This document shows, one piece after another, positions 277 through 59,892 of a DNA stretch of 64,000 bases. The notes beneath the pieces were generated by a model. The model was given only the letters and a program-made list of their open reading frames with translations. It ran no database searches and was not told the DNA's origin. This DNA is from an uncultured Melioribacter sp. GTDB taxonomy: Bacteria > Bacteroidota > Ignavibacteria > Kapaibacteriales > Kapaibacteriaceae. The position numbers and the translations under genes are program-made. Location: contig CAYMTW010000004.1 in assembly GCA_964393485.1 (NCBI GenBank), forward strand, positions 1,863 through 65,862, read 5' to 3'. How positions within the stretch are numbered: the stretch's first letter is position 1; each line of letters opens with the position of its first letter.

Positions 277-909
277 GGTGTAAGCGCTTGGTGTTGAAGC
301 GCTGAATCGTCTGGGATTAGGTATGACGGCCGCCAAACGTGCCGCCTGGTCGCGCGAAAGATCCTTGGCAGATACGCCAAAGGACTTCCGTGCTCCTTGG
401 CCGATGCCATAGACGCCATCGCCCCACTCGATCATGTTCATGTACACTTCCAGAATGCGACGCTTGCCCCAGAGCGCTTCGGTGAGGTACACGAAGTACA
501 CCTCGAAGGCCTTGCGGATCATGGACCTCCACGGCACTAAAAACACATTCTTGCAGGTCTGCATCGTGATGGTACTGGCTCCAAGTGGCGGACGTCCACG
601 TTTTATGCGTCCGGCGTTGACCCTCTCGGCGCGTTTGACCGCATTCCAGTCGATGCCGTTGTGACGCATGAAGGCGCCATCCTCGCCTCCCACGATGCCC
701 CGCGGAACCCACTGGGCAATGTTCTCGTAGCCGACCCACTCGTGACAAACGAGCATAGACTTGCCCGTGAAGGGGGCTTGTAAAACACGCCATACCATCA
801 GCGGCGTGATCGCCGGTGGTACGACGCGCAGAATTGCTACGACCACAACGGATCCGACGAGAAATGCCATGGCTGAGCGCCATGTCCAGAGGAGAATAGT
901 TTTCAACAT
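223..909 (-). CDS. mtgA: Monofunctional biosynthetic peptidoglycan transglycosylase (GT51)
   Basis: N-terminal TM helix; motifs EDGAFMRHNGID, GASTITMQTCKNVFL, RKAFE, KRRILEVYMN, LAAVIPNP. Confidence 0.9.
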   Translation of the reverse strand: MLKTILLWTWRSAMAFLVGSVVVVAILRVVPPAITPLMVWRVLQAPFTGKSMLVCHEWVGYENIAQWVPRGIVGGEDGAFMRHNGIDWNAVKRAERVNAGRIKRGRPPLGASTITMQTCKNVFLVPWRSMIRKAFEVYFVYLTEALWGKRRILEVYMNMIEWGDGVYGIGQGARKSFGVSAKDLSRDQAARLAAVIPNPRRFSASTPSAYTLKRASWIRGRMGAAIPK

Positions 910-8509: not shown

Positions 8510-8519
8510 TATCTCGCGT

Positions 8520-10637: not shown

Positions 10638-10647
10638 AGGCAATCCC

Positions 10648-20351: not shown

Positions 20352-21430
20352 CGCTTGCGAACATACAGCGCATGGGTGTCTGAACCCACGCGCCTGGCAT
20401 GACGCACCTTCCACTTTTTCAGGGGGCTGTCGGCAAACCACTCCGGGCCGGAGCCGATGATCAGGGGTGCGGTATGCACTTCAATCTCATCAACCGCATC
20501 CTCGCGGAGCATACGTGAAGCAAGGTAGGGTCCGCCCTCAAGCAGTACGGAAGCGATCTTAAGCTGAGCCAGGGCCTGAAGTATATCACTGCTAGCGATG
20601 ATCATTGAATCATCGGTTGGCAGAACCACGAGTTCCACGCCATGGTCCCAAAGTCTGTGACGAGCTTCATCATCAGCTCGCTCAGAGCAGATGACAATGG
20701 TCCTGACGTCTCGCGCTGTTTCAACGAGCGTCGTGCTGGTGGGGACGCGGCAGTGCGGGTCGACCACAATACGGATCGGGTTCCTCCCTGAGCACAGGCG
20801 CACGGTCAGTTCCGGATTATCATACACTGCTGTTCCAACTCCGATCATGACGGCGTCGCGTCCCGAGCGCATGCGGTGCACACGAAGGCGGCTCTCGACA
20901 GACGTCAGGTATCGCGGCTGGTCAGGGGGCATGCGCACACGCCCGTCGATGGACGTTGCGATCTTCAACGTAACGTGCGGACGTCCCATCGTGATCCAGT
21001 GCACAAAAGCCCGGTTGAAGTGCTCGGCTTTATCCCTCAAAACGTCTACTGTCACTTCAATGCCAGCCGCGCGCAATGCTTCTATGCCCTTGCCGGCAAC
21101 GAGTGGGTTCGGATCGTGCATGGCAACCACAACGTGCCGCACACCACTCGAAATGATGGCTTCAATGCAAGGAGGCTGCTTACCGTAGTGCACGCATGGT
21201 TCGAGGTTGACGTACATCGTTGCACCTTCAGCCTTGCCGTTGAGTAACTGCAGAGCGTCGACCTCGGCGTGGACGTCACCGTAGGTATGGTGCCAGCCCT
21301 CGGACAGAACGATGTCGTCGCGCACGATAACACAGCCCACCATCGGATTGGGGCTGACGTGACCCGAGCCGAGGCGCGCCAGATCAAGGGCCCGCTCCAT
21401 ATAGAACTCATGTGATGCAGGTCTGGTCAT
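20348..21430 (-). CDS. ribD: Riboflavin biosynthesis deaminase/reductase
   Basis: PNPMVGCV, HAEVDAL, NLEPCVHYGKQPPC, LLEGGPYL. Confidence 0.95.
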   Translation of the reverse strand: MTRPASHEFYMERALDLARLGSGHVSPNPMVGCVIVRDDIVLSEGWHHTYGDVHAEVDALQLLNGKAEGATMYVNLEPCVHYGKQPPCIEAIISSGVRHVVVAMHDPNPLVAGKGIEALRAAGIEVTVDVLRDKAEHFNRAFVHWITMGRPHVTLKIATSIDGRVRMPPDQPRYLTSVESRLRVHRMRSGRDAVMIGVGTAVYDNPELTVRLCSGRNPIRIVVDPHCRVPTSTTLVETARDVRTIVICSERADDEARHRLWDHGVELVVLPTDDSMIIASSDILQALAQLKIASVLLEGGPYLASRMLREDAVDEIEVHTAPLIIGSGPEWFADSPLKKWKVRHARRVGSDTHALYVRKR

Positions 21431-32422: not shown

Positions 32423-34198
32423 ATGCACTTCGAAAAACGCACACGTACCTGCGGTGAGCTTCGTCCGGCAGATGATGCTACAACCGTGATCCTCAACGGC
32501 TGGGTTAATGCCCGACGCGATTACGGAGGGGTCATCTTCATTGACCTGCGCGATCGTGATGGTGTGACGCAGGTTGTGGTCGATTCGGCCCACACTCCAG
32601 ATCTAGCAACGTCGATCGATGCGGTGCGCTCGGAGTTTGTGCTGTGGGTCAAGGGGCAGGTGCGACTGCGCGAAAATCCCAACCCCAAGATCCCAACCGG
32701 TCTGATCGAGATTCTTGCCGACGACATAGGGATCATCAACGCTGCTGACCTTACTCCGTTTGAGATCGTCGATGATTTGGCAACCAATGAAGAGCTGCGC
32801 CTGACGTACCGCTATCTCGACCTGCGACGTCCAGCTCTGCAGCGGAACTTTCTTGTTCGTAACAAGCTCTATCAGATCACGCATCGCTTCTTTGAGCAAG
32901 AGGGCTTCCTAGAAGTAGAAACACCAGTTCTGACGAAGTCTACACCGGAAGGCGCTCGCGACTTCCTTGTGCCGAGCCGCATGAACAAAGGCCGGTTCTA
33001 CGCCCTTCCACAGTCACCGCAGCTGTTCAAGCAGCTTCTGATGGTTTCGGGCTTTGACAAATACATGCAGATCGTCAAGTGCTTCCGCGATGAAGATCTG
33101 CGTGCCGACCGTCAGCCGGAATTCACACAGATCGACGTCGAGATGTCATTCATCACGCAGGAAGACATCCTTGCTCTTACCGAGCGGTTCATAGCAACCG
33201 CCTGGAAAGAGATCCTTGGTATCGACGTCGAGACGTCGTTTCGTCGTATGAGCTTTCATGAAGCTCTCAACCGCTATGGTTCCGACAAGCCGGACATCCG
33301 CTACGGCCTGGAGCTGGTGGACGTCTCGGCCCTGGCAGCTGCGAGTTCCTTCGGGATCTTTTCGAGCACCGTTGCCGATGGCGGCGTGGTCATGGGCCTG
33401 AACGCCCGGACTTGTGGAGGATTCTCCCGCAAGCAGATCGACGAGCTGACCGAGCATGCGAAGAAGTACGGTGCTAAGGGGCTCCCTTGGCTCAAGCTTG
33501 TCGATGGCGAGATCACCGGTTCGTTTGCCAAGCAGCTTACCGGCGACGAAGCATTGCAGCTTAGCGCGGCTCTCGGTGCCGAGAATGGTGATCTTCTCCT
33601 GTTCTTCCCGGGAGAGTGGGAGCGCGCCTGCACCATCGGCGGGGCATTGCGCACAGAGATCGCCCGACGCTGCGGCATCCTTGAGCAGCTGGCCGGAACG
33701 TACTCATTCCACTGGGTGATGGAGTTCCCGCTGCTCGAGTACAGTCCCGAAGAGTCCCGCTGGATCGCTCGTCATCACCCGTTTACAGCACCGATGAACG
33801 AGGACGTCAGTCTTCTGCACTCCGATCCGACGCATGCGCGCGCCGTTGCCCATGACCTTGTGATCAATGGCTATGAGGCGGCAGGGGGCTCGGTGCGTAT
33901 TCATACCAATGATGTGCAGCAGCGGATGTTCGATCTGCTCGGATTCGAGCGTGAAGATGCTGAACAGAAGTTCGGTTTTCTGCTCAATGCTCTGCGGTTT
34001 GGAGCGCCCCCTCACGGCGGAATAGCGTTTGGTTTTGACCGCCTGGTGATGCTGCTCTGCGGCACGGAAAATATCCGTGATGTGATCGCGTTTCCGAAGA
34101 CCACATCTGGTCTGTCGTTGATGGACGGCTGTCCGTCAGGCGTTGATGAGCGCCAGCTCGCCGATGTGGGCATCCGCACCTTGGGCGATCGTCCATGA
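32423..34198 (+). CDS. aspS: Aspartate--tRNA ligase
   Basis: [10 protein letters not shown] fold, [48 protein letters not shown]. Confidence 0.97.
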
Positions 34199-35064
34199 TC
34201 CGACGGGCCGTGACAGGTGCAGTCCTGGCAATCGTCGCCATTGCCGCAGTCGATGCGCAGTCGCAAGAAGCCGCCAATGAAAAATTCGAGGCGGGTCGGG
34301 TAGCTCGTCTCGAAGCAACGGCTCGAGACTCCGGGTGGGTGCGCCTGCCCCTTGGCGTGCTTATGGCCAGACTTGGTTATGAACTTGTCGGCACGCCGTA
34401 CGTGGGTGGCACACTCGAAGGTGATGGTCCTGAGGTATGCCGTGTTCGCCTGGACGGACTAGACTGTGTGACCTTCTTCGAGACGGTGCTCAATCTTGCG
34501 CGGAATCTCAAACTCGGTGCGTCTGGATTCGACCGGCTTTTAGAGAGCGTAACTCGCACCCGGTATCGTGCAGGCCGACTTGATGGATACACGAGTCGTC
34601 TGCACTATACCACCGAATGGTTCCTCGATAACGAGGCCAAGGGCATCGTCAAAGATGTCTCGCAGCAACTCGGTGGACGTCCGACACAGATGAAGCTCGA
34701 CTTCATGTCCACCCACCCGCAGTATTACTCCGCATTGCGCGCAGACACGTCGGCAACTCAGCGTATTGCCGCGATCGAACGCCGATTACAGTCAAAGACC
34801 ATGCACGTCATCCCACGTGAGAAGATCGCCGACATAGAGTCACAGCTGCACGATGGTGACATCGTTGCTATCATGACATCGAAGAAGGGGCTCGACTACG
34901 CTCACACCGGGATCGTTGTTCGCCAGGGGAATCGTGCGCGTCTCATGCACGCATCGTCCACCAAGAAGCAGGTCGTCTTCGACGGCTATCTCGCCGATGT
35001 CATTGCCCGGGTGGATACCTGGACGGGAATCAGTGTTGCACGCCCGAATGACGTTGGACGCTAG
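34195..35064 (+). CDS. DUF1460 N-acetylmuramoyl-L-alanine amidase-like protein
   Basis: Signal peptide; GTPYVGGTLE, LDCVTF (Cys), RLHYTTEW, GLDYAHTG (His), HASS. Confidence 0.88.
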   Translation: MIRRAVTGAVLAIVAIAAVDAQSQEAANEKFEAGRVARLEATARDSGWVRLPLGVLMARLGYELVGTPYVGGTLEGDGPEVCRVRLDGLDCVTFFETVLNLARNLKLGASGFDRLLESVTRTRYRAGRLDGYTSRLHYTTEWFLDNEAKGIVKDVSQQLGGRPTQMKLDFMSTHPQYYSALRADTSATQRIAAIERRLQSKTMHVIPREKIADIESQLHDGDIVAIMTSKKGLDYAHTGIVVRQGNRARLMHASSTKKQVVFDGYLADVIARVDTWTGISVARPNDVGR

Positions 35065-44992: not shown

Positions 44993-47900
44993 GTGGGTAT
45001 TACGAGTATCAACGTCATACGCTCATGGGCGGTCATGGCCGCATGCGCACTAGCATACACAGCGGCTGGTGCGCAGGAGATCCTGTCCCCGGTGGTGCCG
45101 TCGGTAACCCTAGCACGTGGGGCGCACAGGCAACTTGAGCAGGCCCTGCTGCAGCGCTCGCTTGCCAAGCTGCGCCGCTACACTGGTGACTGGGCGCACA
45201 CGTCCTCAGCCGATTACGTCTGGCTTGACAGAGCCGAGATCGATAGGCGTCGCGAAAACAGGCTCGGCGCCGCGCGCCGGCTCTCCGAGTTCACTGAGCG
45301 CCGGTCGGGATCGCCCCTTGCCAGTGGTGCAATGCTTGAAAGGGGGCTCATGGCCCTCGAAGAGTCGGATCACGCCTCCGGTGCCTTATTGAGCGGCATG
45401 GCAGCCTCGATGGCCATGGAAGCCCATGAAGTGCGCCGTGACACAGTCTATATCCTGATAGCCCAGTTGGCATCATTCTGGGAGGCAACGTCCAGGGCCC
45501 ATCTTGGCGAACTCGATAGGGCACTTGAAGCGTATCAGCGTTCACTCAATGGAGATGATTCGCTTGCCGCGCAGGCGCGCTTTGCCATTGGCCAGGTCTA
45601 TGAGCAGAATGCTCAGGATGCCGAAGCATCGGCTGCTTATGGTGCCGTGTGGACTAAACACCCTCGTCATCCGCTTGCGATTTCGGCTCGCGTACGCCAG
45701 GCCGTGATCGCCCTAGGCAAGCGTCAGGCCGTACGTTCGATTGATCTACTCAACGGAATTGATTCGGCGCTTGTCGGATATGTTGCCGGACATGATCGGA
45801 GTCAGCCACTTGACACGACATCGCTGGACCTGGTTCCGGTGGTTCGGGCACAGGCTCTTGCGCAGGCTGGGCTTTACCAGCGGTCGATCGACACCTGTAA
45901 TGCGTTTCTGCTGCGACGTCCCACGTCACGACTGCGATATCTCGTTGATCTTACGGCTGGATACTCTCACCTGCACCTGGCACGACCAGATTCCGCGCTG
46001 CGTCATTACGATATCATTGTAACGGGGGACGTCGAAGAGTCCTCTGACACTCGCTACCAGGCCCTGCTCTACCGCGCCCTGTGTCTAAAGCGGCTTGGAC
46101 GCGTAGAGGAGGCCGACAAGGATTTCACCGCGCTCTCCATGCAAGGGGGCTATCCGTACAAGTCGCACGCATTGATCGAAGTTGGCCAGACGCAGTATGA
46201 GCGCGGAGACTATGAGCGAGCGGCGCGCGCGCTTGAGCGTGCCGAGCGTGAGGCGCAGGATGCCTCCACGCTGCTGCGTGCACAGATCCTTCTCGCAAGT
46301 GCACAGATGCACCGGCAGCAGTGGGCTAAGGCCGCCACAGTTCTTGAACGTGCCGAGAAGATCGCTGCTGAGGCCCGTGACGAACTCGTGCCGCTTCGGC
46401 AGCGCTACCTGGCCGATGCTCGGCTTCATCGCGGTATTTGCTTTGTCCAGTCGGCACAGGCCCGCAAGGCCATTGCCGCGCTGACGGATTTTCTGGGCAA
46501 CCATCCAACGGATCCCCGACGTGACGAGGCCACCTTCTGGCTGGCCGAGGCGATGTACAAGGAAGATCTTCTCAAGAACGCACAGGAACTCTATGAAGAG
46601 GTCGTGCGCCGCTACACCGCCAGTAATCGTCGCGAAGAGGCCATGTATGGTCTGGCATGGACCTATTTCCGCCGTCGTGATTTTGACCGCTCGTCGAAGG
46701 TCTTTGGTGAACTTATCAGTACCTATCCGGCGTCGAGCTATGCCGCCGAGGCCATGGTGCGGCGCGCCGACGGTCTCTATATCGCCAAGCAGTTTAAGGC
46801 TGCTGCACAGCAGTATGAACAGGCAGCGCGCCGCGGAGGTTCATCTGAGGAGGGGCAGTATGCGGCGTTCCAAGCCGGACAGTCAGCCTATCGCGGCGGT
46901 GAGCTTGGTCGGGCCGTTGAGTTAATGCGCGACTTCGTTCAGCGTTTCCCGAAGAGTCGTCTTGCCGACGATGCGCTGTACCTCATCGGATGGGTTGCTT
47001 TTCAACAGCAGGATGATGCCGGAGCCGTGGCCGAGTTTGAGCGACTACTGCAGGCTTATCCCGACGGAGATCATGCCGTGCGTGCTCTCTACACGATGGG
47101 TGATGCATATTTCAATCTTGGAAGCACAGATGCGGCCATCGGTACCTACCGTGATGTGATGAGCCGGTTCCCATCGCATCCGCTTGCCACCGAGGCGGCG
47201 CGTAGCCTCCAAGATGTTCTGGTGGGTCAGGGACGCACAGAAGAAGCTCTCGTGGTGCTCGATACGCTGATCCGCTCGAATCCGACGTCGATCGCGGCCG
47301 AAGAGTTCGCATGGCGCAAAGCTGAGATCTTCTACTCTGGAAAGAATTTCACCTCCGCCGCCGGCGAATTGCAATCCTACCTCAAGAGCTATCCGTCAGC
47401 TCAACGTCAGGACGAAGCGCTCTATCTTTTGGGCCGCACATATCTGTCGATGAACGACATTGCCCAGGCACGTGAGGCTTTCACGTCGATCGCACGAAAA
47501 GATTCGAAGAGCCGCTACGTGGTCACTTCGTCAATGGATCTTGCTGAGTACTTCACCCGCTCGGCGAATATGTCGTCAGCCGATTCGATCTATCGTATCA
47601 TCGTCCGGGATCACCCCGAGGACACAGTTGCAGCGTCGCTGGCCGGTTACGAAATGGCCGAGCATGCGCGTATGCGCGAAGACACAGCCACGGCATTGGA
47701 ACTGTACCGACAGACAGCCGATGTGTATCCGATGTCCGAGTATGGGGCGCAGGCGCGCTACAAGTTAGCGCAGCTGCACCGGCGCGCCGGACGTCTGGAC
47801 AGCACACGATTTCATCTCAATGTGCTGGCACAACGAACCGATGCACCACTGATCGTTGCTAATGTATTGTACGATCTTGGAACATCGTATATGCGTGAGA

Positions 47901-48127
47901 AGAGCTACGAAATCGCCGTTTCGTATTTCGAGCGGGTTCGTGATGATCATGCCGGGATAGAAGACTGGTACACGCTATCGATGCTAGGGCTGGGTGAGTG
48001 CTACGAAGCCCTCAATCGCAAGCCCGATGCTATGCAGACCTACCAGACGGTGTTGACACTTCGTCCCGATGATGACTATGGCAAGACGGCACAAGCACGG
48101 TTGAAGAGACTTGGAGGCCGGCGATGA
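44993..48127 (+). CDS. Large exported tetratricopeptide-repeat protein
   Basis: Signal-like N-terminus (AGA-QE); many CpoB/BamD-like TPR units (DEATFWLAE, EEAMYGLAW, ADDALYLIG, DEALYLLGR). Confidence 0.85.
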   Translation: MGITSINVIRSWAVMAACALAYTAAGAQEILSPVVPSVTLARGAHRQLEQALLQRSLAKLRRYTGDWAHTSSADYVWLDRAEIDRRRENRLGAARRLSEFTERRSGSPLASGAMLERGLMALEESDHASGALLSGMAASMAMEAHEVRRDTVYILIAQLASFWEATSRAHLGELDRALEAYQRSLNGDDSLAAQARFAIGQVYEQNAQDAEASAAYGAVWTKHPRHPLAISARVRQAVIALGKRQAVRSIDLLNGIDSALVGYVAGHDRSQPLDTTSLDLVPVVRAQALAQAGLYQRSIDTCNAFLLRRPTSRLRYLVDLTAGYSHLHLARPDSALRHYDIIVTGDVEESSDTRYQALLYRALCLKRLGRVEEADKDFTALSMQGGYPYKSHALIEVGQTQYERGDYERAARALERAEREAQDASTLLRAQILLASAQMHRQQWAKAATVLERAEKIAAEARDELVPLRQRYLADARLHRGICFVQSAQARKAIAALTDFLGNHPTDPRRDEATFWLAEAMYKEDLLKNAQELYEEVVRRYTASNRREEAMYGLAWTYFRRRDFDRSSKVFGELISTYPASSYAAEAMVRRADGLYIAKQFKAAAQQYEQAARRGGSSEEGQYAAFQAGQSAYRGGELGRAVELMRDFVQRFPKSRLADDALYLIGWVAFQQQDDAGAVAEFERLLQAYPDGDHAVRALYTMGDAYFNLGSTDAAIGTYRDVMSRFPSHPLATEAARSLQDVLVGQGRTEEALVVLDTLIRSNPTSIAAEEFAWRKAEIFYSGKNFTSAAGELQSYLKSYPSAQRQDEALYLLGRTYLSMNDIAQAREAFTSIARKDSKSRYVVTSSMDLAEYFTRSANMSSADSIYRIIVRDHPEDTVAASLAGYEMAEHARMREDTATALELYRQTADVYPMSEYGAQARYKLAQLHRRAGRLDSTRFHLNVLAQRTDAPLIVANVLYDLGTSYMREKSYEIAVSYFERVRDDHAGIEDWYTLSMLGLGECYEALNRKPDAMQTYQTVLTLRPDDDYGKTAQARLKRLGGRR

Positions 48128-49758
48128 TCACACGTCTTGCGCGAATTGCTCTTTCGCTGTCGGTCCTGATGATCGGCACACTCGCTGCATTTTCCCAGAC
48201 GCAGCCTTCGCCCCCTGTTCAGCCCAATGCTCCGCTGGAGCTTCCGGACTTCCTCGTCACGGGGAAGGCCGTGGTCGATATTGCAGCTGGTGCCAAGGCC
48301 CTGCCATCACGTCCGCCGACATTCTCACTCTCCGAGCTTGACTCGCTGAATCCAACCGAGAAACTTCCACCGCCGCTTGCGGCACGTCGGCCCCTTCCGT
48401 TGTTCACTCGTAAAGAACGAAGCTCGCCCGGCTATGTTGATCTTTCAGGTGGTGCTTACCTGACGCCAGCTCTCGAGGCTGGATATTCGCTTCGTACCGG
48501 TGGTTACACGCTTGATCTTGGAACGCACGTCGAACATTCACAAGGGTGGGTCGAAAACTCAGGGTACACAACGATTCAGGCAAACCTCAACTCCTCCTAC
48601 GTTGCACCCGAAAAGTTTTTGTACTTCGGCAAGGGGCTCACGGAGACCGATCTGCAGATTCGGCAGCAGTCGTATGCACTTTATGGTGACACGCTGCTCG
48701 GGCGCGAGCGATCGAGTACAGCGATCACGGCAGCCGTGACGACGGAGGCCAAGGTGGACAATACCGACATTACTGGACGCTTCGGATGGTCACGAACGGC
48801 TCTGATGACATCGGCGTCTGATTCGTTAGCCGAAGAGTCAGCCACAGATAACTCCATCACGGCCGGTGTTTCGGCGTTGTGGACACAGGGTGGCTCGGGT
48901 AGATCAGCCATTGATGTTGACCTTCGCCTGCAGTCACTCAACGGCAAGTCCTACACGTTTATCGAAGCCTTGTATCAGCGGCGTTGGAAGGGTCAGGCCT
49001 GGTCCTATGCCATTGCGGGTGGACCTCAACTCGGATCGACCACAACCGGAGAAACGCGTCTGGGTCTGCGTGTAGTAGGCATGGGGCAGACCGATTTGAC
49101 ATCTAACTCCACGGTGCGTATCGAGCTTGCTTCTGGACTTCGTCCGACCTCGTATCGAGAGCAGCTGCAGGCAAATCCCTATATCGTTGACTCGGTAAAT
49201 CTCGATCATGCGTATGACCTGGTCGATGCCCGCGTGTCGTTGGCCTATCAGCCGTCGGTGGTCACGTCTATGCTTTTCACTGCGGGATTTCGATCAACCT
49301 CGCGCGAGCGTACGTGGGAGGATGCCACCCAGGGTCGATTCATTCTGTCGTACCGACCAGTAACGGCTCTCTGGGCCGCCGCCGAGGGGACACATGCAGT
49401 GACGGCGCGCGATGTCGTTATCGGCGATCTGCAGTTGACCACTGCTGCGAGTGATTCGGGTCGAACACAGACCTACGTGCCGCTTCTGCGGGCAACACTT
49501 GGTTATGAGCGTTTATGGTCGTCGCAGGTGCGATCCAGCTTGTCAGTGCTCTACACCTCTCAACGCTGGGCCGATGTTGGCAACACGCGAACGGTGGACG
49601 GGTTCATTGATCTCCGTGCTGCCGTTGTCTATGCAGCCAGTGCAACCGTGGATGTTGAACTTCGTGGTGAGAACCTTGTTGATAGCAGTGTGTTCCTGTG
49701 GAACGGCTATCGGGGCAGGGGTATCTTTGTACGTCTTGGAATTCTCTGGAAGTTGTAG
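48124..49758 (+). CDS. Outer-membrane beta-barrel protein with TonB-box-like N-terminus
   Basis: Signal peptide; LPDFLVTG motif; alternating amphipathic strands; TBDR-like C-terminus (GFIDL...LRGENL...GIFVRLGILWKL). Confidence 0.7.
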   Translation: MITRLARIALSLSVLMIGTLAAFSQTQPSPPVQPNAPLELPDFLVTGKAVVDIAAGAKALPSRPPTFSLSELDSLNPTEKLPPPLAARRPLPLFTRKERSSPGYVDLSGGAYLTPALEAGYSLRTGGYTLDLGTHVEHSQGWVENSGYTTIQANLNSSYVAPEKFLYFGKGLTETDLQIRQQSYALYGDTLLGRERSSTAITAAVTTEAKVDNTDITGRFGWSRTALMTSASDSLAEESATDNSITAGVSALWTQGGSGRSAIDVDLRLQSLNGKSYTFIEALYQRRWKGQAWSYAIAGGPQLGSTTTGETRLGLRVVGMGQTDLTSNSTVRIELASGLRPTSYREQLQANPYIVDSVNLDHAYDLVDARVSLAYQPSVVTSMLFTAGFRSTSRERTWEDATQGRFILSYRPVTALWAAAEGTHAVTARDVVIGDLQLTTAASDSGRTQTYVPLLRATLGYERLWSSQVRSSLSVLYTSQRWADVGNTRTVDGFIDLRAAVVYAASATVDVELRGENLVDSSVFLWNGYRGRGIFVRLGILWKL

Positions 49759-49761
49759 CCT

Positions 49762-50910
49762 ATGGACACAAAAGATCCCGTTTGGGATGACGACGAAAGC
49801 GCGCCGAGTACTGACGGATTCCGTCCCCGTACTCAGCCTCCGGCTCCCGAGCCACCGGCCTCGCAGCAGGCCACGCAGAGCGGTCCGGATTCGGTTTTAG
49901 AACCAGTAGCCGAGCCAGCCCCGCATCTCGAATTGCCGAGCGAACCAGAGTCGCCGTCAATTGGTACAGAGATGTCTGGTTCTGAGTCAGCACCAGAGCT
50001 CGAGCCTACTGCGATACCTGTGCCTGGTGCTGATCGTGTTCGCATTGAACCAGTTGACAGTTTCCGCCGACCTGAAGCAGGGGGCTCGCGTGCTGCTCGC
50101 GATCGTCGCCAGCGTAGCTCGACGTCTATGGTGCTTGTGGCACTAATTCTGTTTCTGATCAGCGTCATTAGTATCGGCGTGTACCTTTTTTCCCGCGCAG
50201 CCGACAGCGATTCGGCTGGGGTAGCAGAGCAGGTGGAGTTCATCGACCAGGCGCAACAGGTCACGACGGATTCATCACAGCAGGTACCAGCTTCTCAGGA
50301 TGTACTACCTGCGCCCGCGCCAGAGCAGCCACCAGTCGAGCAAACGCCACCGCCGCCGCCGCCGCCGGGCGCCGGAACGAAGGCTGCACCGACAGCAGCC
50401 AGCGCCGCCGCGTCGGGTCGTGGTGCACGTGAACAGTCCACGCGGACCACAGCTCCCGCTCCAGATCTTGCCGAAAGCCAACCGCCACGCGTTGTTCCGG
50501 AGCCAGAGCCAGCCCCGAAGCCAAAGCCGGAACCTGCGCCGAAGCCTATCGTAAAACCAAAGCCTGAGCCCGCTCCGAAAGCCCCGTCCAAAGAATCGGT
50601 CCGTGAGCAGACTCCGTCTCGCAATTCGGCACCAGCGCCGAGTGCATCCCTGAAGACCACCAAGAGTTCCTCGTCTGCTGGGGCTCAATGGGTCATACAA
50701 GTTCATTCAAGTCCGTCCGTCGATGATGCCGATGAATGGCTCCGCCAGTTACAATCGCGCAACGTCGGTGATGGACGTATCGAGCCCGTCACCCAGCAGG
50801 GCAAGGTCTGGTATCGCGTCCGTTTTGGACGCTATGCCACACGGGAAGAGGCCGAGCAGGCCGCCCTTCAGCTGGGGTATCGAAATGCGTGGATCGATAG
50901 GGTTCGATGA
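49762..50910 (+). CDS. SPOR-domain membrane protein (FtsN/DedD/DamX-like)
   Basis: Acidic N-terminal region, Arg cluster, single TM, Pro-rich (PE/PK) linker, SPOR domain (WVIQVHS...WYRVRFGRYATREEA). Confidence 0.85.
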   Translation: MDTKDPVWDDDESAPSTDGFRPRTQPPAPEPPASQQATQSGPDSVLEPVAEPAPHLELPSEPESPSIGTEMSGSESAPELEPTAIPVPGADRVRIEPVDSFRRPEAGGSRAARDRRQRSSTSMVLVALILFLISVISIGVYLFSRAADSDSAGVAEQVEFIDQAQQVTTDSSQQVPASQDVLPAPAPEQPPVEQTPPPPPPPGAGTKAAPTAASAAASGRGAREQSTRTTAPAPDLAESQPPRVVPEPEPAPKPKPEPAPKPIVKPKPEPAPKAPSKESVREQTPSRNSAPAPSASLKTTKSSSSAGAQWVIQVHSSPSVDDADEWLRQLQSRNVGDGRIEPVTQQGKVWYRVRFGRYATREEAEQAALQLGYRNAWIDRVR

Positions 50911-51656
50911 CACGACACGTTGATCAGCCGGCGCTGACCATCCGTCTGGTGTGGAGTCCGAATGTTGTTCGGGGCTTCATCGGAGCGCTGTTGATCATGG
51001 GCCTGATCCTCGGCATGCTCACCTGCACACGGGTCGAGGTCGAGCCGATCGTTCTTCCAAAGACCACTCCCGTGACGCTGCTGGTGCTCGGTAGTGGAGA
51101 TGGCACTGGTGTACGTAAGGGGAATCTTACTGCCGAGGGGGCGGCACAGCGCGGCGCCGAAAGCAAGGACCCGCTCGTTGATGCCACACGCAGTAGCGGT
51201 GCATCCAAAGCCCCAACGTCGGACCCAGCACTGGCATCAAGGTTTATCCCCAAGGACGAAGCCGGACGCGGAGGCAAGACCTCCGACGAGTCGTCGTCGG
51301 ATCGTAGCATCGGCTCGGCTAAGGGCACCGATGAAGGAAGTGGTCTGGGCGAGTTGGGTGTGGGAAGGGGCAAGGGCGATGGCTATGGTGATATCGACTG
51401 GGGCGGCGGCGGCAACCGCACGGTCGTCACGAAGGTCATCCCGACGTTCCCACCGGGAGTGCTCGACACGAAGGTCAAGATCCGTTTTCGCGTGGCTGCC
51501 AATGGCGCCGTGACAACGGCCTGGCCTGAAAAAAAAGGTGGTAGCCGACTGGTTGAGCAGGCCGCGATTCAGGCGCTGATGCGCTGGCGATTCAATCGTC
51601 TGCCGTCGGATATCGAAATGGAAGGTGTGATCACATTTATGGTGAATTACCGATGA
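50907..51656 (+). CDS. TonB-family energy transducer (TonB C-terminal domain)
   Basis: N-terminal TM, Gly/Ser-rich linker, C-terminal P-x-FP...VKIRFRVAANGAV...AAIQALMRWRFN...ITF. Confidence 0.75.
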   Translation: MTRHVDQPALTIRLVWSPNVVRGFIGALLIMGLILGMLTCTRVEVEPIVLPKTTPVTLLVLGSGDGTGVRKGNLTAEGAAQRGAESKDPLVDATRSSGASKAPTSDPALASRFIPKDEAGRGGKTSDESSSDRSIGSAKGTDEGSGLGELGVGRGKGDGYGDIDWGGGGNRTVVTKVIPTFPPGVLDTKVKIRFRVAANGAVTTAWPEKKGGSRLVEQAAIQALMRWRFNRLPSDIEMEGVITFMVNYR

Positions 51657-51835
51657 TCGGAACTCTTGTCGCACTGGCCTCATCGCTGCCCGGAGGACTG
51701 CAGGTCCTCGTTGTATTGTTGCTCGTGGGCCTGGTTTTATCGATCATCAAGAAACTCGTCAAGATCGCCTTGTTGGTCACCTTCCTGATCGTTCTCATCT
51801 TTGTCATCCGTCTGCTCATGGTATCAATGCCGTAG
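51653..51835 (+). CDS. Small two-TM membrane protein
   Basis: 60 aa, very hydrophobic; start overlaps the stop of the TonB-like gene. Confidence 0.6.
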   Translation: MIGTLVALASSLPGGLQVLVVLLLVGLVLSIIKKLVKIALLVTFLIVLIFVIRLLMVSMP

Positions 51836-53224: not shown

Positions 53225-54784
53225 TCAGCGGCGCCTACCTTCAAACTTCCGTCCACGCAATGTTCTGAATGCTCTGAGCTGACGCCGGCTGCGCCAGGCG
53301 CGTACGATCTTTAGCCAGAGGATCCGCAACAATAGTCCGAGCGACATCTTCGAGGCCATACTGCTGCTATCGAGCATGTTCCGCAGCTGGGCGCGTTCGA
53401 GCTCGCTGATCGGCATATCATCGCTGTTTGATGACGGTTTGTTGAGAATGTGGTCGAGCATCTTCTCGAGTTCGGCTGCGGCCTTCTCAAAGCGCTTTGC
53501 GTCGATCTTGTTGTAGCGCATCAGAAGGATCAAATGGTCGTAGAGGATGGCTGCGCGTTTGATGTCTTCGACTTGACGTTCCGTGCGCAGAGCCTCGAGA
53601 AGCGACTCTGCCAGTTCCTCGAACTGCACCACCTTTTCTTCGGAGAGCGAGAACATCTCGTTGGCGGCAATGTCATCGACATTGACGTACACCGTGCTCA
53701 GGCGACGGATCTCATCACCGTAGTGCTCGGCAAGGGTAGCCCCATATCTGGATGTGAGCTGTGAGATCTGACGCTGGATCTGATCGATCTGTGACCGCAG
53801 TGAGTCCTGACGCATCTTTCCGGAGGCCAGTGAAAGCTGACTCTCGAGATCACGGCGATGCGTGAAGAGCTCGCGAATGCGCACGGCTTCGGGCGAGTTG
53901 GACGAAGCCACCATGCCTTCGACCACCACGCTGTCCACCTGCAGGCGGGCACTGCCGATCTTAACCGTGTTGATCGTGATCTGTCCGCCAAGCTGTGAGC
54001 GCAGGTGCTCCATATCGATATGCGCCACGCCGTCGGTGACCACCAGGATCTGGGCATGGCTGAGCTTGCTCTCGTGCGAGATGTCGTCGATGGCCGTCTG
54101 AATGGCTTTCTGCAGCACCGTGCCGTTGCCCACGGCCTTGACGTGCATGACCGTGCTGATCAGGTGCTCATAGGACGGAATGTCGCGGGCCGTTAGCAGA
54201 TCGCCGATCTGCAGATCGAACGTCCGGAAGAAGATCGTACCAAGCTCGCGCTGGTTACGGCGCAGGAAGAGATAGACGATGGCCTTGGCAAGGTGGATGC
54301 GATAGTGCTGCTGCATCGAGTTCGACGTATCGAACAGGATATAGACCTTCTGCTTGCGGTCATCGGGCGCAAACCGATCTGACTCGGTCTGGTAGGCATA
54401 ATTGCGTGCCTGCTTCGGCCGTGGCATCCAGAGCGAGCGCTCGGCCAGCTTGCGCAGGAAGACCATTTCCGGCAAGAGATGCTGCGCCGGATAGATATAG
54501 CGGAGTTCGCTGACGGAGGTGATCAGATCGGCTTCGTACTCCTTGGCCTCCGGAACGTGCGGAACCACGATGGTGTCCACGCTGTCACGCTCGGCCAGCG
54601 GGTCGTTCAGCTCCAGCACTGGAGCTAGGGCACGGGAAATGGCATGTGTGGAATCTTCGAGAATCCGGGCGATCTCGTAGATGATGGTGAATTCATCCGG
54701 AAGGTGTTCTTCGACCGTTTCGAAGAACCCGAACTCTTCCATCTGCGAGAAGAACGTCGATGTCTCGATGGCCGAACGTGACAT
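53225..54784 (-). CDS. VWA-domain protein (ViaA-like partner of a MoxR ATPase)
   Basis: MIDAS DTSNS, GNGT, VTDG; encoded directly downstream of the AAA+ gene. Confidence 0.82.
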   Translation of the reverse strand: MSRSAIETSTFFSQMEEFGFFETVEEHLPDEFTIIYEIARILEDSTHAISRALAPVLELNDPLAERDSVDTIVVPHVPEAKEYEADLITSVSELRYIYPAQHLLPEMVFLRKLAERSLWMPRPKQARNYAYQTESDRFAPDDRKQKVYILFDTSNSMQQHYRIHLAKAIVYLFLRRNQRELGTIFFRTFDLQIGDLLTARDIPSYEHLISTVMHVKAVGNGTVLQKAIQTAIDDISHESKLSHAQILVVTDGVAHIDMEHLRSQLGGQITINTVKIGSARLQVDSVVVEGMVASSNSPEAVRIRELFTHRRDLESQLSLASGKMRQDSLRSQIDQIQRQISQLTSRYGATLAEHYGDEIRRLSTVYVNVDDIAANEMFSLSEEKVVQFEELAESLLEALRTERQVEDIKRAAILYDHLILLMRYNKIDAKRFEKAAAELEKMLDHILNKPSSNSDDMPISELERAQLRNMLDSSSMASKMSLGLLLRILWLKIVRAWRSRRQLRAFRTLRGRKFEGRRR

Positions 54785-54785
54785 A

Positions 54786-56105
54786 TCACGTCCGTTCCAT
54801 ACGCTGTAGCTCCCGTTCGACGGTGATCAGCGTCGATTGCAGAGCAAGCTCAACGGAATGCTTGAGCTCACGCACTTCGTCGCACACCGGCACCAGATCT
54901 GTGAGAAATTGCTCCAGGATCTTGCGGTTCTGATCCTGCGGCTGCTCGGCACCGAAGCGCTCCTTGATCCACTCGAAGAGTGTGCGCCGCACCGGGGCAT
55001 CGGCAAACTGCGACAGGGGGCGAAGCATCTGCTGGGGGTTCTCCTTGATCTCCTGCAGCAGGTGCGAGTAGTCCAGCAGCATCGTTACCTGATCAAAACC
55101 GCGCGAGGCCGTGAGTGAGTTCAGTACCGTCGTATAGGCCTTCTTGAACAGAGCGATCTCCTCTGGCAGGCCCACAGTTGAGAAGATGAAGTACAGGCGG
55201 CTGGCATCGTCATGGACGACGTTGCTTCGCCCCTTGAGTAGGGCCAGAGCACGCAGAAGATCAAGCGACTTGGCCTGCGTGCGCGGGGAAATGTAAAAGT
55301 CCTTACTACTGCCGGACTTTACCTGCTCATGAAGCTGGCGGTTGCGTAGGAACTCGAAGTGTCGGATGACGATGTTTGTGAAATACAGCATCTCGTTAGA
55401 AACACTAATCGATAGCTCTTCGCTGCGTCCCGTGATGATACGGTGCATGCTATGCAGCCGCTCAAACGAAATGCGTCGTGTGGGCTCGGCGGTCTTACCG
55501 CCATGGACCAGGTAGCGCTGTGATATCTGGTACTGCACGAAGGGATCCTTATCCGGCAGGATCACCGCCTTGAACAGAAACCGGTCCAGCAGGGCCTCGG
55601 TCACTTCGCTCACGCGCAGGTAGTTGGTGGCGGCGATCACCGTGTGCAGGGGCGAACTCACATCCTGGATGCCGCGCAGAAGACGACGCTCGTTGAGCAG
55701 TGACAGCAGCGCACGCAGGGTAAAGTCGTTAGCATCGAAGATCTCGTCGATGAAGCCGAACTGGCTCTCGACAAGCGAGCCCTGGGTATTGTGGATGATC
55801 CGTCCGGACTTGAGCTGTTCGAGGTCGAGTCCGCCGAAGAACGTGTCGGGCTGTTGTTCCTTGCTGGCCTGGACCCGGAACAGGCGGGCCCCTTCGAACA
55901 TGGCGAAGATCTGTTCGGCCAGCAGGGACTTGCCAACGCCCGTACGGCTCTGCAGCAGAAGGTGCTCGGCCGTGAGCAGGGCGCAGAAGGCCTGTTCGAT
56001 CACTTCCTCACGATTGATCACCCGCTGACCTATGAACCAGGCGGCGTCTTTGAGTTCTTTGGCGATCTCTTCAATGGATCCGGACGTGGCCTGTGCCTGC
56101 CCCAT
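54786..56105 (-). CDS. MoxR/RavA-like AAA+ ATPase
   Basis: INREE, variant Walker A SRTGVGKS, Walker B FIDEIF, LLSLLNER, AATN, ALLDRF, ISPR. Start refined to 56105. Confidence 0.88.
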   Translation of the reverse strand: MGQAQATSGSIEEIAKELKDAAWFIGQRVINREEVIEQAFCALLTAEHLLLQSRTGVGKSLLAEQIFAMFEGARLFRVQASKEQQPDTFFGGLDLEQLKSGRIIHNTQGSLVESQFGFIDEIFDANDFTLRALLSLLNERRLLRGIQDVSSPLHTVIAATNYLRVSEVTEALLDRFLFKAVILPDKDPFVQYQISQRYLVHGGKTAEPTRRISFERLHSMHRIITGRSEELSISVSNEMLYFTNIVIRHFEFLRNRQLHEQVKSGSSKDFYISPRTQAKSLDLLRALALLKGRSNVVHDDASRLYFIFSTVGLPEEIALFKKAYTTVLNSLTASRGFDQVTMLLDYSHLLQEIKENPQQMLRPLSQFADAPVRRTLFEWIKERFGAEQPQDQNRKILEQFLTDLVPVCDEVRELKHSVELALQSTLITVERELQRMERT

Positions 56106-56176
56106 ATCACACTCCCAGATTGGTGATGCGGCCAATATAGCAACGGGGCCAGCCCGGCCCGGCATCGCATTTGACG

Positions 56177-56188: not shown

Positions 56189-58063
56189 GTGAACAGCGAC
56201 GTCCAGATCGACCCCCAGCGTCAGCGTCTGCAATCGATCGCCGATGCGATGCCGACGCGTCCGGGCGTATACCTGCATAAGGACGCCGGCGGTACGATCA
56301 TCTACGTTGGCAAGGCCAAGAATCTGCGTAGCCGTGTGCGGTCGTATCTGCAGGAAGCCCGTCCGGTGAACGCCAAAACTGCTGCCTTGGTGCAGAAGAT
56401 CGACGATATCGAATTCATCGTCACGGACACCGAGGTCGAGGCGCTGATCCTCGAAAATACGCTCATCAAGCAGCACCGTCCGAAGTACAACATTCTGCTC
56501 AAGGACGACAAGTCCTATCCGTTCATCCGGATCACACGTGAGGCCTACCCACGAGTGTTCAAGACACGTCAGGTCATTCGTGACGGCAGCACCTACTTCG
56601 GACCCTACACCGACGGAACCTACCTGTACCATTTGCTGAAGACTCTGCGCAGCGTGTTTCCGTTGCGCTCGTGTGATCTGCCGCTGACCGATGCCGGCAT
56701 TGCCGAAGGACGCTGGAAGGTCTGCCTGGACTATCACATCAAGAAATGCGACGGACCCTGCGAGGGGCTGATCTCGGCAGTGCGCTATAACGACTACATA
56801 CGTCAGGCCACACAGGTCTTGCAGGGACGCACGCGCGAGCTCGAAGCCAGCCTTGAGCAGCGAATGCATGAGCTGGCCGAGGACCTGCGTTTCGAGGACG
56901 CCGAGGTTGTGCGCCAGCGTCTTGAGCGTCTACGTTCCTATACCACCAAGCAGAAAATGCTGACAGCGGACACACGTGATCAGGACGTCTTTGCGCTTGC
57001 TCGATCCGAATCCACGGCCTGCAGTCTGGTGCTGACCATTCGCGACGGAAAGCTCGTGGGCAAGCGTCACTTTATCATTCCGTCGGTGCGCGACCGCAGT
57101 GACGAGGAGATCCTTTCAACAACCATCGAGCGCTGGTACCTTGACGCCGAGTCCGTACCTGACCAGGTGCTGCTGCCGATGGAGATCGAATCGGCCGAGA
57201 TCGTTGCCGACTACCTGCGTACGCGCCGAGGCTCGGCCGTCGAGGTGACGGTGCCAAAGATCGGCGACAAGCGCAAACTCGTACTGCTGGCCGAACAGAA
57301 TGCCGACGTGCTGCTGCGGGAGATCGTGGCACAGCAGGCCGCCAAGGACCAGACCGTTTCAAAGGCCGTGCTGGCGTTGCAGAAGGATCTCCGCATGGAG
57401 CGACTGCCGCGTCGAATTGAATGCGTGGACAACTCGCACATGCAGGGAACCGACTACGTCTCGTCGATCGTGGTGTTCATGGATGGTAAGCCCCGTAAAT
57501 CGGAGTATCGACATTACAAGCTGCGCACCATGACCGGCAATGATGACTTCGAGGCCATGAAGGAGGTCCTTACGCGGCGATTCACACCCGTTGACGACAG
57601 CGGTGAGCCCCGTGAGGTCGTCTATCCGGACCTGCTGGTGATCGATGGAGGAAAGGGGCAGCTCTCGCACGCCATGGAGGTGATGCGGGCTCTTGGCATC
57701 GAGGGCAAGTTCACGGTTGTGGGGCTTGCAAAGCGTCTCGAAGAGGTCTTCGTTCCCCAGAGCAGCACACCGGTGTTTATTCCCAAGACCAGTGCCGCGC
57801 TACGTCTTTTGCAGCAGGTGCGCGACGAGGCCCACCGTTTTGCCGTGCGCTACCACCGCATTCTGCGCACCAAGCGGACCCTGCAGACCGAGCTGACAAG
57901 CATTCCGGGGGTGGGTCCGAAAACGTCCACAACGCTGCTAACAACGCTTGGTTCGGTGCAGGCCGTGCGCCAGGCCACGCTCGAAGAACTTCAGGCCGTC
58001 ATTTCGACGTCGCAGGCCGCAAAGGTGTATGCGCATTTTCACACCGACGAGCCGACTGAATGA
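56189..58063 (+). CDS. uvrC: Excinuclease ABC subunit C
   Basis: GIY-YIG (PGVYL..IIYVGKAKNLRSRV), CLDYHIKKCDGPC, UVR domain, ECVDNSH, IDGGKGQ, HhH. Confidence 0.97.
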   Translation: MNSDVQIDPQRQRLQSIADAMPTRPGVYLHKDAGGTIIYVGKAKNLRSRVRSYLQEARPVNAKTAALVQKIDDIEFIVTDTEVEALILENTLIKQHRPKYNILLKDDKSYPFIRITREAYPRVFKTRQVIRDGSTYFGPYTDGTYLYHLLKTLRSVFPLRSCDLPLTDAGIAEGRWKVCLDYHIKKCDGPCEGLISAVRYNDYIRQATQVLQGRTRELEASLEQRMHELAEDLRFEDAEVVRQRLERLRSYTTKQKMLTADTRDQDVFALARSESTACSLVLTIRDGKLVGKRHFIIPSVRDRSDEEILSTTIERWYLDAESVPDQVLLPMEIESAEIVADYLRTRRGSAVEVTVPKIGDKRKLVLLAEQNADVLLREIVAQQAAKDQTVSKAVLALQKDLRMERLPRRIECVDNSHMQGTDYVSSIVVFMDGKPRKSEYRHYKLRTMTGNDDFEAMKEVLTRRFTPVDDSGEPREVVYPDLLVIDGGKGQLSHAMEVMRALGIEGKFTVVGLAKRLEEVFVPQSSTPVFIPKTSAALRLLQQVRDEAHRFAVRYHRILRTKRTLQTELTSIPGVGPKTSTTLLTTLGSVQAVRQATLEELQAVISTSQAAKVYAHFHTDEPTE

Positions 58064-59892
58064 GCTCGGCCCTTGAGCTTGTGCTAGCCGAGCTGCATCG
58101 GCTGGACCGTTTTGAACCGGTGGCCTATCGCATACCCGGTGCCTGGGTCGGTGCAGATTCACCTCAGGAGCTACCATCGGTCGCGTCCTTTTTCAGGGGG
58201 CTCATCGAAGCGCTGCCATCGCAGGCATCATCTGACGTCGCAGGTCGGGTATACTACAACGCCATGGTCCGGCATCTGACGTCCTATGACCACGGGTCGC
58301 AGGCCCGGCGCGCCGGATGGCGCAGCACGGGCACGTTTCTGAAAATGATCGCCGTGCTTGGGCATCTGCAGTCGCTTGGCGTCGGGACCATCGTGCTTCT
58401 GCCCATCAACACCATCGGCAGGGTAGGGCAGAAGGGGAGTATCGGTTCGCCATACAGCGTTCGGGATCCCTTTTCGATCGAGCCGCAGCTCTCGGAGCCC
58501 CTTCTCAGGATCGATCCCGAGATGCAGGCCCGGGCCTTTGTCGAGGCGGCCCACCGCATGGGCATGCGGGTGATCACCGAGGTGGTGCTTCGCACGGCCA
58601 GTCTCGACAGTGTACTGGCTGAGGATCATCCCGAATGGTTTTACTGGATCCATGCCGATCGGGCCCGGGCGTTCTCCGCACCCGTCTTCTCGGCCGTGCA
58701 GGCTGGACGCATTGCGCGTCAGGTTGAGTCCGGAAGTCGGGACAAACTGCCGCCGCCACCGGCCGAATACCGGCGTCAGTTCACCAAGCCCCCTCTCAGC
58801 GTACACTTCGATGCCGCCGGACGTTGCAGTGGCACCACGGCCGATGGTGAGCAGGTGACCGTTCCCGGGGCCTTTGCCGACTGGCCCGTGGACGATCCGC
58901 AGCCGGCCTGGTCAGATGTGACGTATCTGCGCCTGGATCGTCATACCGACTTCAATTACATGGCCTACAACACCATACGGATGTTCGACGCACGCCTGGA
59001 GGCACCTGAGGTGTCCAACGACGGTGCCTGGAACATTCTCAGTGCCATCATCCCTACGCAGATGCGCATGCTAGGTACGGACGGGGCGATGATCGACATG
59101 GGGCATTCATTGCCGTCGCGATTGCGCCGCCGGGTTATCGAGCAAGCGCGTGCCGAGCGAACTGATGCCGTGATGATCGAAGAGAACTTTCACATCGACG
59201 TCAGTTCAGCCCGCGACGGTTTTGACATCGTCACCGGATACCTTCCGTTTGACGCGCACTGTGCCGACGGACTGCGTCGGTTTATTGACCGCATTGCCTG
59301 TGAGCCGGCGCAGGTGGACTTTTTCGGCTGGGTGGAATCGCACAACACGGCTCGCCTGGCCGAACGCGTGCATCCGGACCGCGTAGCACCGACGTGGCTG
59401 TTTGTGAGTCTTGTGCCGCGTGCGCGGCCATGCATCGTCAGCGGCATGGAACTCGGCGAAACGCGTCCGATAAACACCGGACTCGGCTTTACGCCCGAGC
59501 AGATCAGCCGGTGGCCGGCCTCGGAGCTGGCGCTCTTCAGTGACGTAGCGCTGCCGTGGGACGCCGGCGCAGCGTTTCTGCATCAGATGCTTTCGCTGCT
59601 GGGCATGCTCGGCCAAATTGATCTCATCAGGGGGCTCACAGATGATGACACCATCACGCCCCTTACCGGTGGCAGCCCCGACGTGGTGGCCTATCATCGG
59701 ATTATTCGGGGCCTGCGACGCGGCATTGCCGTGGTGCTCAACACAGCTGATGAGCCGCGCGTGGCAGAGCTGTCAGGCGTCGGGATCTCGGCAGTTTCCG
59801 TGGACGCGCGCTGGGGTCTTGACGCAGCGGTTCTGCGTTGTCATCTCGAGGCGAATCAGGTACTGGTGATCCCCACGCACTGCCGGGGGTAG
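58060..59892 (+). CDS. GH13 alpha-amylase-family protein, Thermotoga maltosyltransferase-like
   Basis: GTFLKM, LLPI, GSPYSVRDP, AFVEAAHRMGMRV, HPEWFYWI, DPQPAWSDVTYLRL, GAMIDMGH, MIEE, VESHN. No signal peptide. Confidence 0.85.
   Translation: MSSALELVLAELHRLDRFEPVAYRIPGAWVGADSPQELPSVASFFRGLIEALPSQASSDVAGRVYYNAMVRHLTSYDHGSQARRAGWRSTGTFLKMIAVLGHLQSLGVGTIVLLPINTIGRVGQKGSIGSPYSVRDPFSIEPQLSEPLLRIDPEMQARAFVEAAHRMGMRVITEVVLRTASLDSVLAEDHPEWFYWIHADRARAFSAPVFSAVQAGRIARQVESGSRDKLPPPPAEYRRQFTKPPLSVHFDAAGRCSGTTADGEQVTVPGAFADWPVDDPQPAWSDVTYLRLDRHTDFNYMAYNTIRMFDARLEAPEVSNDGAWNILSAIIPTQMRMLGTDGAMIDMGHSLPSRLRRRVIEQARAERTDAVMIEENFHIDVSSARDGFDIVTGYLPFDAHCADGLRRFIDRIACEPAQVDFFGWVESHNTARLAERVHPDRVAPTWLFVSLVPRARPCIVSGMELGETRPINTGLGFTPEQISRWPASELALFSDVALPWDAGAAFLHQMLSLLGMLGQIDLIRGLTDDDTITPLTGGSPDVVAYHRIIRGLRRGIAVVLNTADEPRVAELSGVGISAVSVDARWGLDAAVLRCHLEANQVLVIPTHCRG

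Follow-up and report, generated by a model that had tools for sequence, protein, structure and literature searches.

The window analysed here is the whole stretch of 64,000 nucleotides (nt) from an uncultured Melioribacter sp. (contig CAYMTW010000004.1, positions 1,863 to 65,862), and it contains five closely packed genes on its forward strand. In order, they encode a TPR protein (44993–48127, 1044 amino acids (aa)), an outer-membrane barrel protein (48124–49758, 544 aa), a SPOR protein (49762–50910, 382 aa), a TonB-like protein (50907–51656, 249 aa) and a small two-helix protein (51653–51835, 60 aa). Together the five proteins span the outer membrane, the periplasm, the cell wall and the inner membrane, and they are built on Ton/Tol parts. 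It is highly probable that the operon is one functional envelope unit of the Ton/Tol type. With slightly less than even confidence, we favour the reading that this envelope-spanning module works as a septal outer-membrane tether and not as a nutrient importer.

The start and stop codons overlap as ATGA at the TPR/barrel, SPOR/TonB-like and TonB-like/small junctions, and the gap between the barrel and SPOR genes is 3 nt. A preliminary description of this DNA had taken the five genes as probably one unit on the ground that they overlap or nearly abut. The coordinates and all four junctions proved to be as claimed, and the gene order is kept in relatives. The G+C content of the operon region (about 57%) equals that of the remainder of the window. 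Promoter and terminator scans gave no signals above the level of shuffled sequences, and the boundaries of the operon are not defined by them. The next gene, 40 bp past the operon and in the same orientation, encodes a UDP-glucose dehydrogenase. It is syntenic in the Kapabacteria-type loci described below and may be co-transcribed with the operon.

The barrel protein was modelled with AlphaFold2 from two alignments, one of 22 sequences (predicted local distance difference test score (pLDDT) of 77) and one of 145 sequences (pLDDT 90.1, predicted template modelling score 0.80). In both models residues 103–543 form 22 strands, and with 145 sequences this region reaches a pLDDT of about 97. Among the matches listed, Foldseek with both models retrieved TonB-dependent transporters only, the best being BtuB (E = 1e-16 and 4e-16). 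The barrel family profile also matched the C-terminal strands of solved TonB-dependent transporters in the PDB (E = 9e-5), and weak matches to PF00593 appeared in eight of 22 barrel homologues. The window barrel alone matched nothing in a sequence search of the PDB and no family in Pfam or NCBIfam. The Plug domain PF07715 was not detected at E ≤ 1 in the window barrel or in 21 homologues (22 family members). The barrel had been noted to be short and to leave no room for a plug, and this was borne out by its length of 544 aa, by the missing PF07715 match and by the models, neither of which contains a folded plug. Judged from these models and searches, the protein has the TonB-dependent-transporter fold and lacks the plug.

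The N-terminal tail in front of the barrel (residues 25–102; 48196–48429, forward strand) is the mature periplasmic part and is predicted to be unstructured in both models. Residues 22–100 have pLDDT values of 47–68 and form no sheet, and their sole helix is short (residues 69–73). With 78 residues, the tail is half of a plug's size. The Ton-box-like sequence ELPDFLVTG (residues 39–47) fits the Ton-box pattern, and its counterpart in L039, the locus of the most distant member, is LPEFVITG. About 50 Pro-rich residues had been estimated to separate LPDFLVTG (residues 40–47, nt 48241–48264) from the first strand, GYVDLSGG (residues 103–110). The count is 55, and the tail has 16 Pro among its 78 residues. 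Other conserved elements of the tail are K58, P61, LDSLNPTEK (nt 48337–48363; LDSLNPxEK in the family), P92 and Pro-rich spacers. Across 37 diverse members, conservation is higher in the tail than in the barrel (majority fraction 0.48 vs 0.36), and 13 of the 40 best-conserved positions of the whole protein fall in the tail. Two other parts of the protein were also conserved. The motif APEKF..FGKGLTETD (residues 160–176, window 48601–48651) is strongly conserved in a turn that is presumably periplasmic, and it is a candidate for partner docking. An NPY motif (residues 350–357, window 49171–49194) is conserved in a long, presumably extracellular loop, which also carries a short helix (residues 344–353) as a candidate for narrowing the lumen.

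The TPR protein has a signal peptide ending with A-G-A before Q, and the N-terminal alignment showed that a lipobox Cys is not conserved in its homologues. It is made of TPR_6/TPR_16 repeats according to Pfam. The tol_pal_ybgF model matched it in eight stretches (E = 7e-80), and the OM_YfiO and CpoB models matched with E values of 6e-43 and 1e-29. These scores agree with the earlier suggestion of a TPR partner of the CpoB kind. Judged by its sequence, it is a long periplasmic solenoid, a multi-module protein of the CpoB/YbgF type, which is also BamD-like, and not a CpoB orthologue. Its gene is directly 5' of the barrel gene in Kapabacteria-type and L039-type loci.

Both the SPOR domain and the TonB C-terminal domain named in the preliminary description were recovered. 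The SPOR domain matched PF05036 with E = 5e-13 (residues 308–378, nt 50683–50895). The SPOR protein has a conserved cytoplasmic DPxWDDD motif (residues 5–12) and a single membrane helix (residues 123–143), and its full length matched the FtsN-like model TIGR02223 weakly (E = 1e-4). The spacer in front of its SPOR domain is Pro-rich and shows TonB-like Glu-Pro/Lys-Pro repeats, PEPEPAPKPKPEPAPKPIVKPKPEPAPK, at about residues 250–285 (window 50500–50600). The TonB-like protein has one membrane helix (residues 20–40), the conserved motifs LGxGDGTGxRKGNLTAEGAAQ (residues 59–81) and DWGGGGNR (residues 164–171), and a TonB C-terminal domain that starts near residue 177 (nt 51435–51653). As a single sequence it matched PF03544 with E = 1.4e-3, which is under the Pfam cut-off, and tonB_Cterm with E = 9e-5. 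The profile of its family (20 sequences) matched the C-terminal domain of E. coli TonB with E = 5e-9, and TolA structures only with E = 0.8–0.9. There was also a weak match to the AgmX/PglI tail (E = 3e-4). The 60-aa protein, which has a conserved KKLVK loop besides two hydrophobic helices, matched no Pfam or NCBIfam family. It occurs in Kapabacteria-type loci only and is absent from distant loci. Its helices have no acidic residue, and it is unlikely to be a proton-conducting stator subunit.

The set of close relatives was composed of 29 loci from GTDB species genomes. The order TPR, barrel, SPOR, TonB-like and small gene is kept in all 29 as far as the DNA reaches. The five genes are complete in 23 loci, and five other loci end at a contig edge. 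L029, L030 and L033 are the most distant of the set, with barrel identities of 25–29%; in L033, the most distant of all, no TPR gene or small open reading frame (ORF) was detected. Taken alone, this shared order is weak evidence, since most of these loci share the wider neighbourhood too. An exhaustive profile search extended the family to about 160 representative barrel clusters at E < 1e-30, with full-length members of 510–630 aa, and a search with a diverse barrel alignment did not reach beyond it. In distant members the core appears with unrelated flanks, as TPR-barrel-SPOR or as barrel-SPOR-TonB_C. One distant member has TPR-barrel-SPOR-TonB_C adjoining a nos cluster, and L035 has murD-ftsW directly upstream of TPR-barrel-SPOR-TonB-like. 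The SPOR gene is 3' of the barrel gene wherever downstream DNA exists, except in L061, whose contig has only a gene start. The synteny in relatives on which the earlier proposal depended was therefore found, and it survives among unrelated flanks. Because the core is kept with entirely different flanking genes, the operon genes are a conserved unit, and chance adjacency of the five genes was rejected.

The close barrel homologues are named Candidatus Kapabacteria or Kapaibacterium, and this class of Bacteroidota is accordingly the most likely origin of the window. The family as a whole was found in Kapabacteria, in metagenome-assembled genomes (MAGs) labelled Ignavibacteria and in Balneolales, where its members are annotated as hypothetical or as 'TonB-dependent receptor'. 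The pairs of TPR and receptor genes that the preliminary description had mentioned for Bacteroidota annotations correspond only loosely to this distribution. Several MAG contigs with Kapabacteria-type synteny (within L005–L033) are labelled Patescibacteria, Chitinophaga pinensis, Hyphomicrobiales or Didemnitutus, and these are apparently mislabelled or contaminated bins.

Motor genes appeared in two sister clades. In L039, the most distant among the matches listed, the TPR, barrel and SPOR genes are followed by MotA/ExbB, ExbD and TonB_C genes. Its TPR protein matched tol_pal_ybgF in 14 stretches (E = 6e-126) and also matched the GltC model. A metagenome scan gave 11 further L039-type loci, and SPOR-ExbB-ExbD-TonB was present in each of those with enough DNA downstream of the barrel. 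The L039-type TonB has a canonical S-x-x-x-H anchor, GSIVFHAGL. A W-GGG-x-R motif before the C-terminal domain is common to the window TonB-like protein and the L039-type TonB. Therefore, the window TonB-like gene belongs to a TonB subfamily dedicated to the cluster.

The second clade, of Balneola and Gracilimonas, was identified by a protein search (548 clusters), and the barrel is present in Balneola isolates too. Its barrel is about 570 aa long and has no Plug match, its tail is different yet equally conserved, and it is homologous to the window-type barrel over the whole barrel (hhalign probability 99.2%). The order is barrel, HU-domain+helix+SPOR, ExbB, ExbD and TonB. The genes ftsK, lolA and one for an LPG-synthase-like membrane protein precede the barrel on the same strand in nine of the ten loci with upstream DNA. 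A co-directional run from ftsK to TonB was observed at 3324–14780 of L054 and also in L057–L065, with an S41 peptidase gene added in several loci. In this clade the SPOR protein carries an HU DNA-binding domain at its N-terminus, and its spacer is very acidic. The HU-helix-SPOR architecture is known in Bacteroidetes, where HU was placed inside the cell and SPOR anchored to the wall in the periplasm (PMC5499826). The motor A subunits of the sister clusters favour TolQ over ExbB models (5e-26 vs 1e-14; 2e-23 vs 6e-12), with scores far under the curated cut-offs of the models. The assignment of the B subunits to TolR or ExbD was ambiguous by model scores.

The machine had been proposed to be energised and related to division. 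The first claim is supported by the ExbB/TolQ-like and ExbD/TolR-like genes between SPOR and TonB in the two sister clades, and it does not extend to the window, which has no motor gene. The second is supported circumstantially, by ftsK-lolA upstream of the Balneolales-type barrel and by murD-ftsW in L035, which are hints of a possible septal role.

Among known systems, the operon is nearest to Tol-Pal (TolQ-TolR-TolA-TolB-Pal-CpoB of Proteobacteria) in its manner of working, yet it fails on TolB, Pal and the TolA-type domain. Both have an inner-membrane-anchored transducer with a TonB-homologous C-terminal domain. That of Tol-Pal binds an unstructured N-terminal strand of its partner, and that of the operon is proposed to do so. 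Both have a CpoB/YbgF-type TPR gene in the same operon, and among the models compared, those of TolQ gave the stator A subunit of the sister clusters its best scores. Both would also be linked to septal peptidoglycan, as the recruitment of Tol-Pal depends on the SPOR protein FtsN. In contrast to Tol-Pal, the operon has no TolB beta-propeller or Pal, and its outer-membrane partner is an integral 22-strand barrel. Its C-terminal domain has TonB as the nearer match (E = 5e-9, against 0.8 for TolA). The operon itself encodes a SPOR protein, the window has no stator gene, and eight CpoB-like modules (14 in L039) stand against the single TPR domain of CpoB.

The Ton system, as in BtuB-TonB (PDB 2GSK), shares the 22-strand barrel, a Ton-box-like motif (x-hydrophobic-V-T-A/G), a TonB-family C-terminal domain and, in relatives, ExbB-ExbD by the TonB gene. 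However, the operon barrel lacks the plug, which is the basis of gated import, and has a conserved unstructured tail of 78 residues instead. Its dedicated companions are SPOR and TPR proteins, with which it is co-inherited, and uptake genes are not among them. In the TonB-like protein of the window organism, the linker is Gly/Ser-rich and the anchor lacks S-x-x-x-H. Plug-less 'Type S' SusC-like transporters of Bacteroides (bioRxiv 10.1101/2025.11.13.688124) are also natural plug-less barrels of the transporter type within Bacteroidota. By their description, they are set apart by polysaccharide-utilisation loci and small-sugar import, whereas the operon barrel has SPOR, TonB and TPR neighbours and its own conserved tail.

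PorE and TolB-Pal fusions, which have been proposed to tether the outer membrane of Bacteroidetes to the wall (PMC12204202), are, like the operon, a candidate stand-in for Tol-Pal with TPR, and PorE binds the wall by an OmpA-like and not a SPOR domain. Unlike the operon products, PorE is a single lipoprotein with TPR, beta-propeller, carboxypeptidase-like and OmpA-like domains. The Agl-Glt and Nfs systems of Myxococcus are likewise single assemblies across the envelope, in which a TolQR-type motor is combined with TonB_C-type proteins, outer-membrane barrels and TPR proteins. However, their barrels are different, they have many more parts, they function in motility or the spore coat, and they have no SPOR protein. 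Their sequence ties to the cluster are only the weak AgmX/PglI-tail match and generic TPR similarity (the GltC model in L039). The SPOR protein of the operon resembles the FtsN, DedD and DamX type in having a C-terminal SPOR domain on a single-pass inner-membrane protein with a Pro-rich spacer.

TonB pairs with a strand of its transporter and TolA with a strand of TolB, in both cases by beta-strand pairing. SPOR domains, such as those of FtsN, DedD, DamX and RlpA, prefer septal denuded glycan. In the proposed mechanism, the TonB-like domain would pair by a beta-strand with the Ton-box strand of the barrel, and this would couple the outer to the inner membrane. The SPOR protein would gather the assembly where glycan strands are denuded at the septum. 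The TPR protein could be a scaffold, or a link to wall synthesis like CpoB. A stator of the TolQR/ExbBD type probably powers the link, and in the window genome it would be encoded elsewhere, if at all. As a net effect, the outer membrane would follow the constricting septum or be stapled there, in a Tol-Pal-like manner with an integral barrel replacing TolB-Pal.

Several points weigh against the septal tether. The system is known from genes and predictions. Septal localisation, force transduction and a role in constriction are only inferred. SPOR domains occur also in proteins that are not division-specific. The putative Ton box in the tail is a resemblance of motif only. A plug-less 22-strand pore would have to be sealed by another element, for which the tail and the conserved NPY loop are candidates. 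The helix of the TonB-like protein, VVRGFIGALLIMGLILGMLTC, lacks the S-x-x-x-H motif, and the alignment showed no His there or in the Kapabacteria-type homologues. Its linker is Gly/Ser-rich and not Pro-rich, and the Glu-Pro/Lys-Pro repeats of the SPOR protein are missing from it. No stator gene was found among the ORFs of at least 150 aa in the 64-kb window. The TolQ-like scores of the motor A subunits are low, as given above, and the ExbBD-TonB set of the sister clusters could be a plain housekeeping Ton system. PD40 and OmpA domains were absent from the operon and from the homologous clusters examined, and with them the equivalents of TolB and Pal. The ftsK adjacency is confined to one order. 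Even there, the cultured Gracilimonas sediminicola is the exception, as it keeps barrel-HU/SPOR-ExbB-ExbD-TonB with other flanks and no ftsK adjacency. Finally, no description of the system was found in the literature on plug-less receptors, on SPOR with TonB, ExbB or TPR, and on outer-membrane constriction in Bacteroidota.

The main rival to the septal tether, which we consider rather unlikely, is a gated channel. The barrel would be a plug-less pore closed by the tail or the conserved loop, it would import or export some solute, related to the wall or not, for instance peptidoglycan fragments or polysaccharide, and it would be opened by the TonB-like protein and a stator. The SPOR and TPR proteins would then do no more than keep the machine at the wall. 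The transporter fold of 22 strands with its Ton-box-like motif, the ExbB-ExbD-TonB genes of the sister clusters, and the NPY motif and short helix that could narrow the lumen are all in agreement with this, and the natural plug-less 'Type S' transporters are reported to import still in Bacteroides (bioRxiv 10.1101/2025.11.13.688124). However, in none of the lineages examined is the cluster accompanied by SusD, a binding protein, an inner-membrane permease or a catabolic gene. The preliminary description had also proposed that the system is not a nutrient importer, and the loci examined support this, as the first three are missing beside the core genes. Moreover, the most conserved part of the barrel protein is the tail and not the loops, and its constant partner is a peptidoglycan-binding SPOR protein.

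Distinctly improbable is a passive staple that links outer membrane, wall and inner membrane around the whole cell, with no energy input and no septal role, the motor link having been lost in Kapabacteria. No stator gene is present in the window or in any Kapabacteria-type locus examined, the anchor helix has no His, and the small two-helix protein occupies the ExbB-ExbD position of other clades. On the other hand, ExbB-ExbD are kept inside the cluster in the sister clades, and the septal preference of SPOR domains does not suit a staple all round the cell. The missing anchor His is no proof of uncoupling, because the Balneolales-type TonB of L054, which stands beside ExbB-ExbD, lacks His too. 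A polysaccharide exporter, in which the TPR protein and the barrel would act like AlgK-AlgE, BcsC, PgaA or PelB with supply from the downstream UDP-glucose dehydrogenase, was rejected as very improbable: the gene of the large TPR protein is coupled in translation to that of an outer-membrane barrel and the dehydrogenase gene is syntenic, but the barrel has 22 strands and a transporter fold against the 16–18 strands of exporter porins, the operon has no synthase, glycosyltransferase or Wza/Wzc-type gene, and the dehydrogenase and TPR genes are missing from Balneolales and other distant loci, where barrel-SPOR-TonB persists.

Returning to the septal tether, Bacteroidetes have been reported to have no recognisable tol-pal loci, and PorE was the sole candidate offered in a 2025 survey (PMC12204202). 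The cluster would be of interest in this respect. We regard it as a possible, still doubtful, proposal that the cluster is the missing functional equivalent of Tol-Pal in early-branching Bacteroidota (Kapabacteria, Ignavibacteria and Balneolales/Rhodothermia). A dedicated TonB paralogue driven by the proton motive force would pull the Ton-box tail of the barrel at SPOR-marked sites, so that the outer membrane would be dragged or stapled to the septum as it closes. For diderms outside Proteobacteria, little is known of how the outer membrane is made to follow the septum. If the proposal is true, the Ton/Tol machines would have a third functional class in addition to import and Pal mobilisation, in which Ton/Tol force transduction is put to structural use with the barrel as a handle, and the cluster would be a concrete candidate for study in cultured Balneola and Gracilimonas. 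Should the barrel turn out to be a channel, the TonB-dependent transporters would still gain a new class of relative, a conserved barrel that has no plug and comes with a dedicated TonB paralogue and a SPOR protein.

Other features of the window were also observed. A 742-aa protein with a PD40 beta-propeller and a C-terminal OmpA domain, of the TolB-Pal-fusion or PorE-like kind, is encoded at 8409–10637 on the forward strand, 34 kb upstream of the operon. This protein and the operon are different things and may coexist. The product of the next gene (10588–14652, forward strand) is a 1354-aa BNR/Sortilin/LamG/PKD protein that carries a sorting domain for type IX secretion. An AmiA-like N-acetylmuramoyl-L-alanine amidase (34195–35064, forward strand) and a monofunctional transglycosylase (223–909, reverse strand) are present, and neither is linked to the operon. 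Amidases of the AmiA kind make the denuded glycan that is bound by SPOR domains. Convergent with the operon are the genes of a VWA protein (53225–54784, reverse strand) and of a bpMoxR-type AAA ATPase (54786–56165, reverse strand), whose position is kept across Kapabacteria-type loci. In relatives, a gene for a 1287-aa VWA+beta-propeller protein lies near the MoxR-vWA pair, and the Pfam family bpMoxR is named after MoxR-vWA-beta-propeller ternary systems. After uvrC, an ORF of 610 aa (58060–59892, forward strand) matched no significant Pfam family, and it has the same position in distant relatives (617–625 aa). On the reverse strand, a gene for a HEAT-repeat protein of 924 aa (16249–19023) abuts one for a TPR protein of 472 aa (19023–20441).

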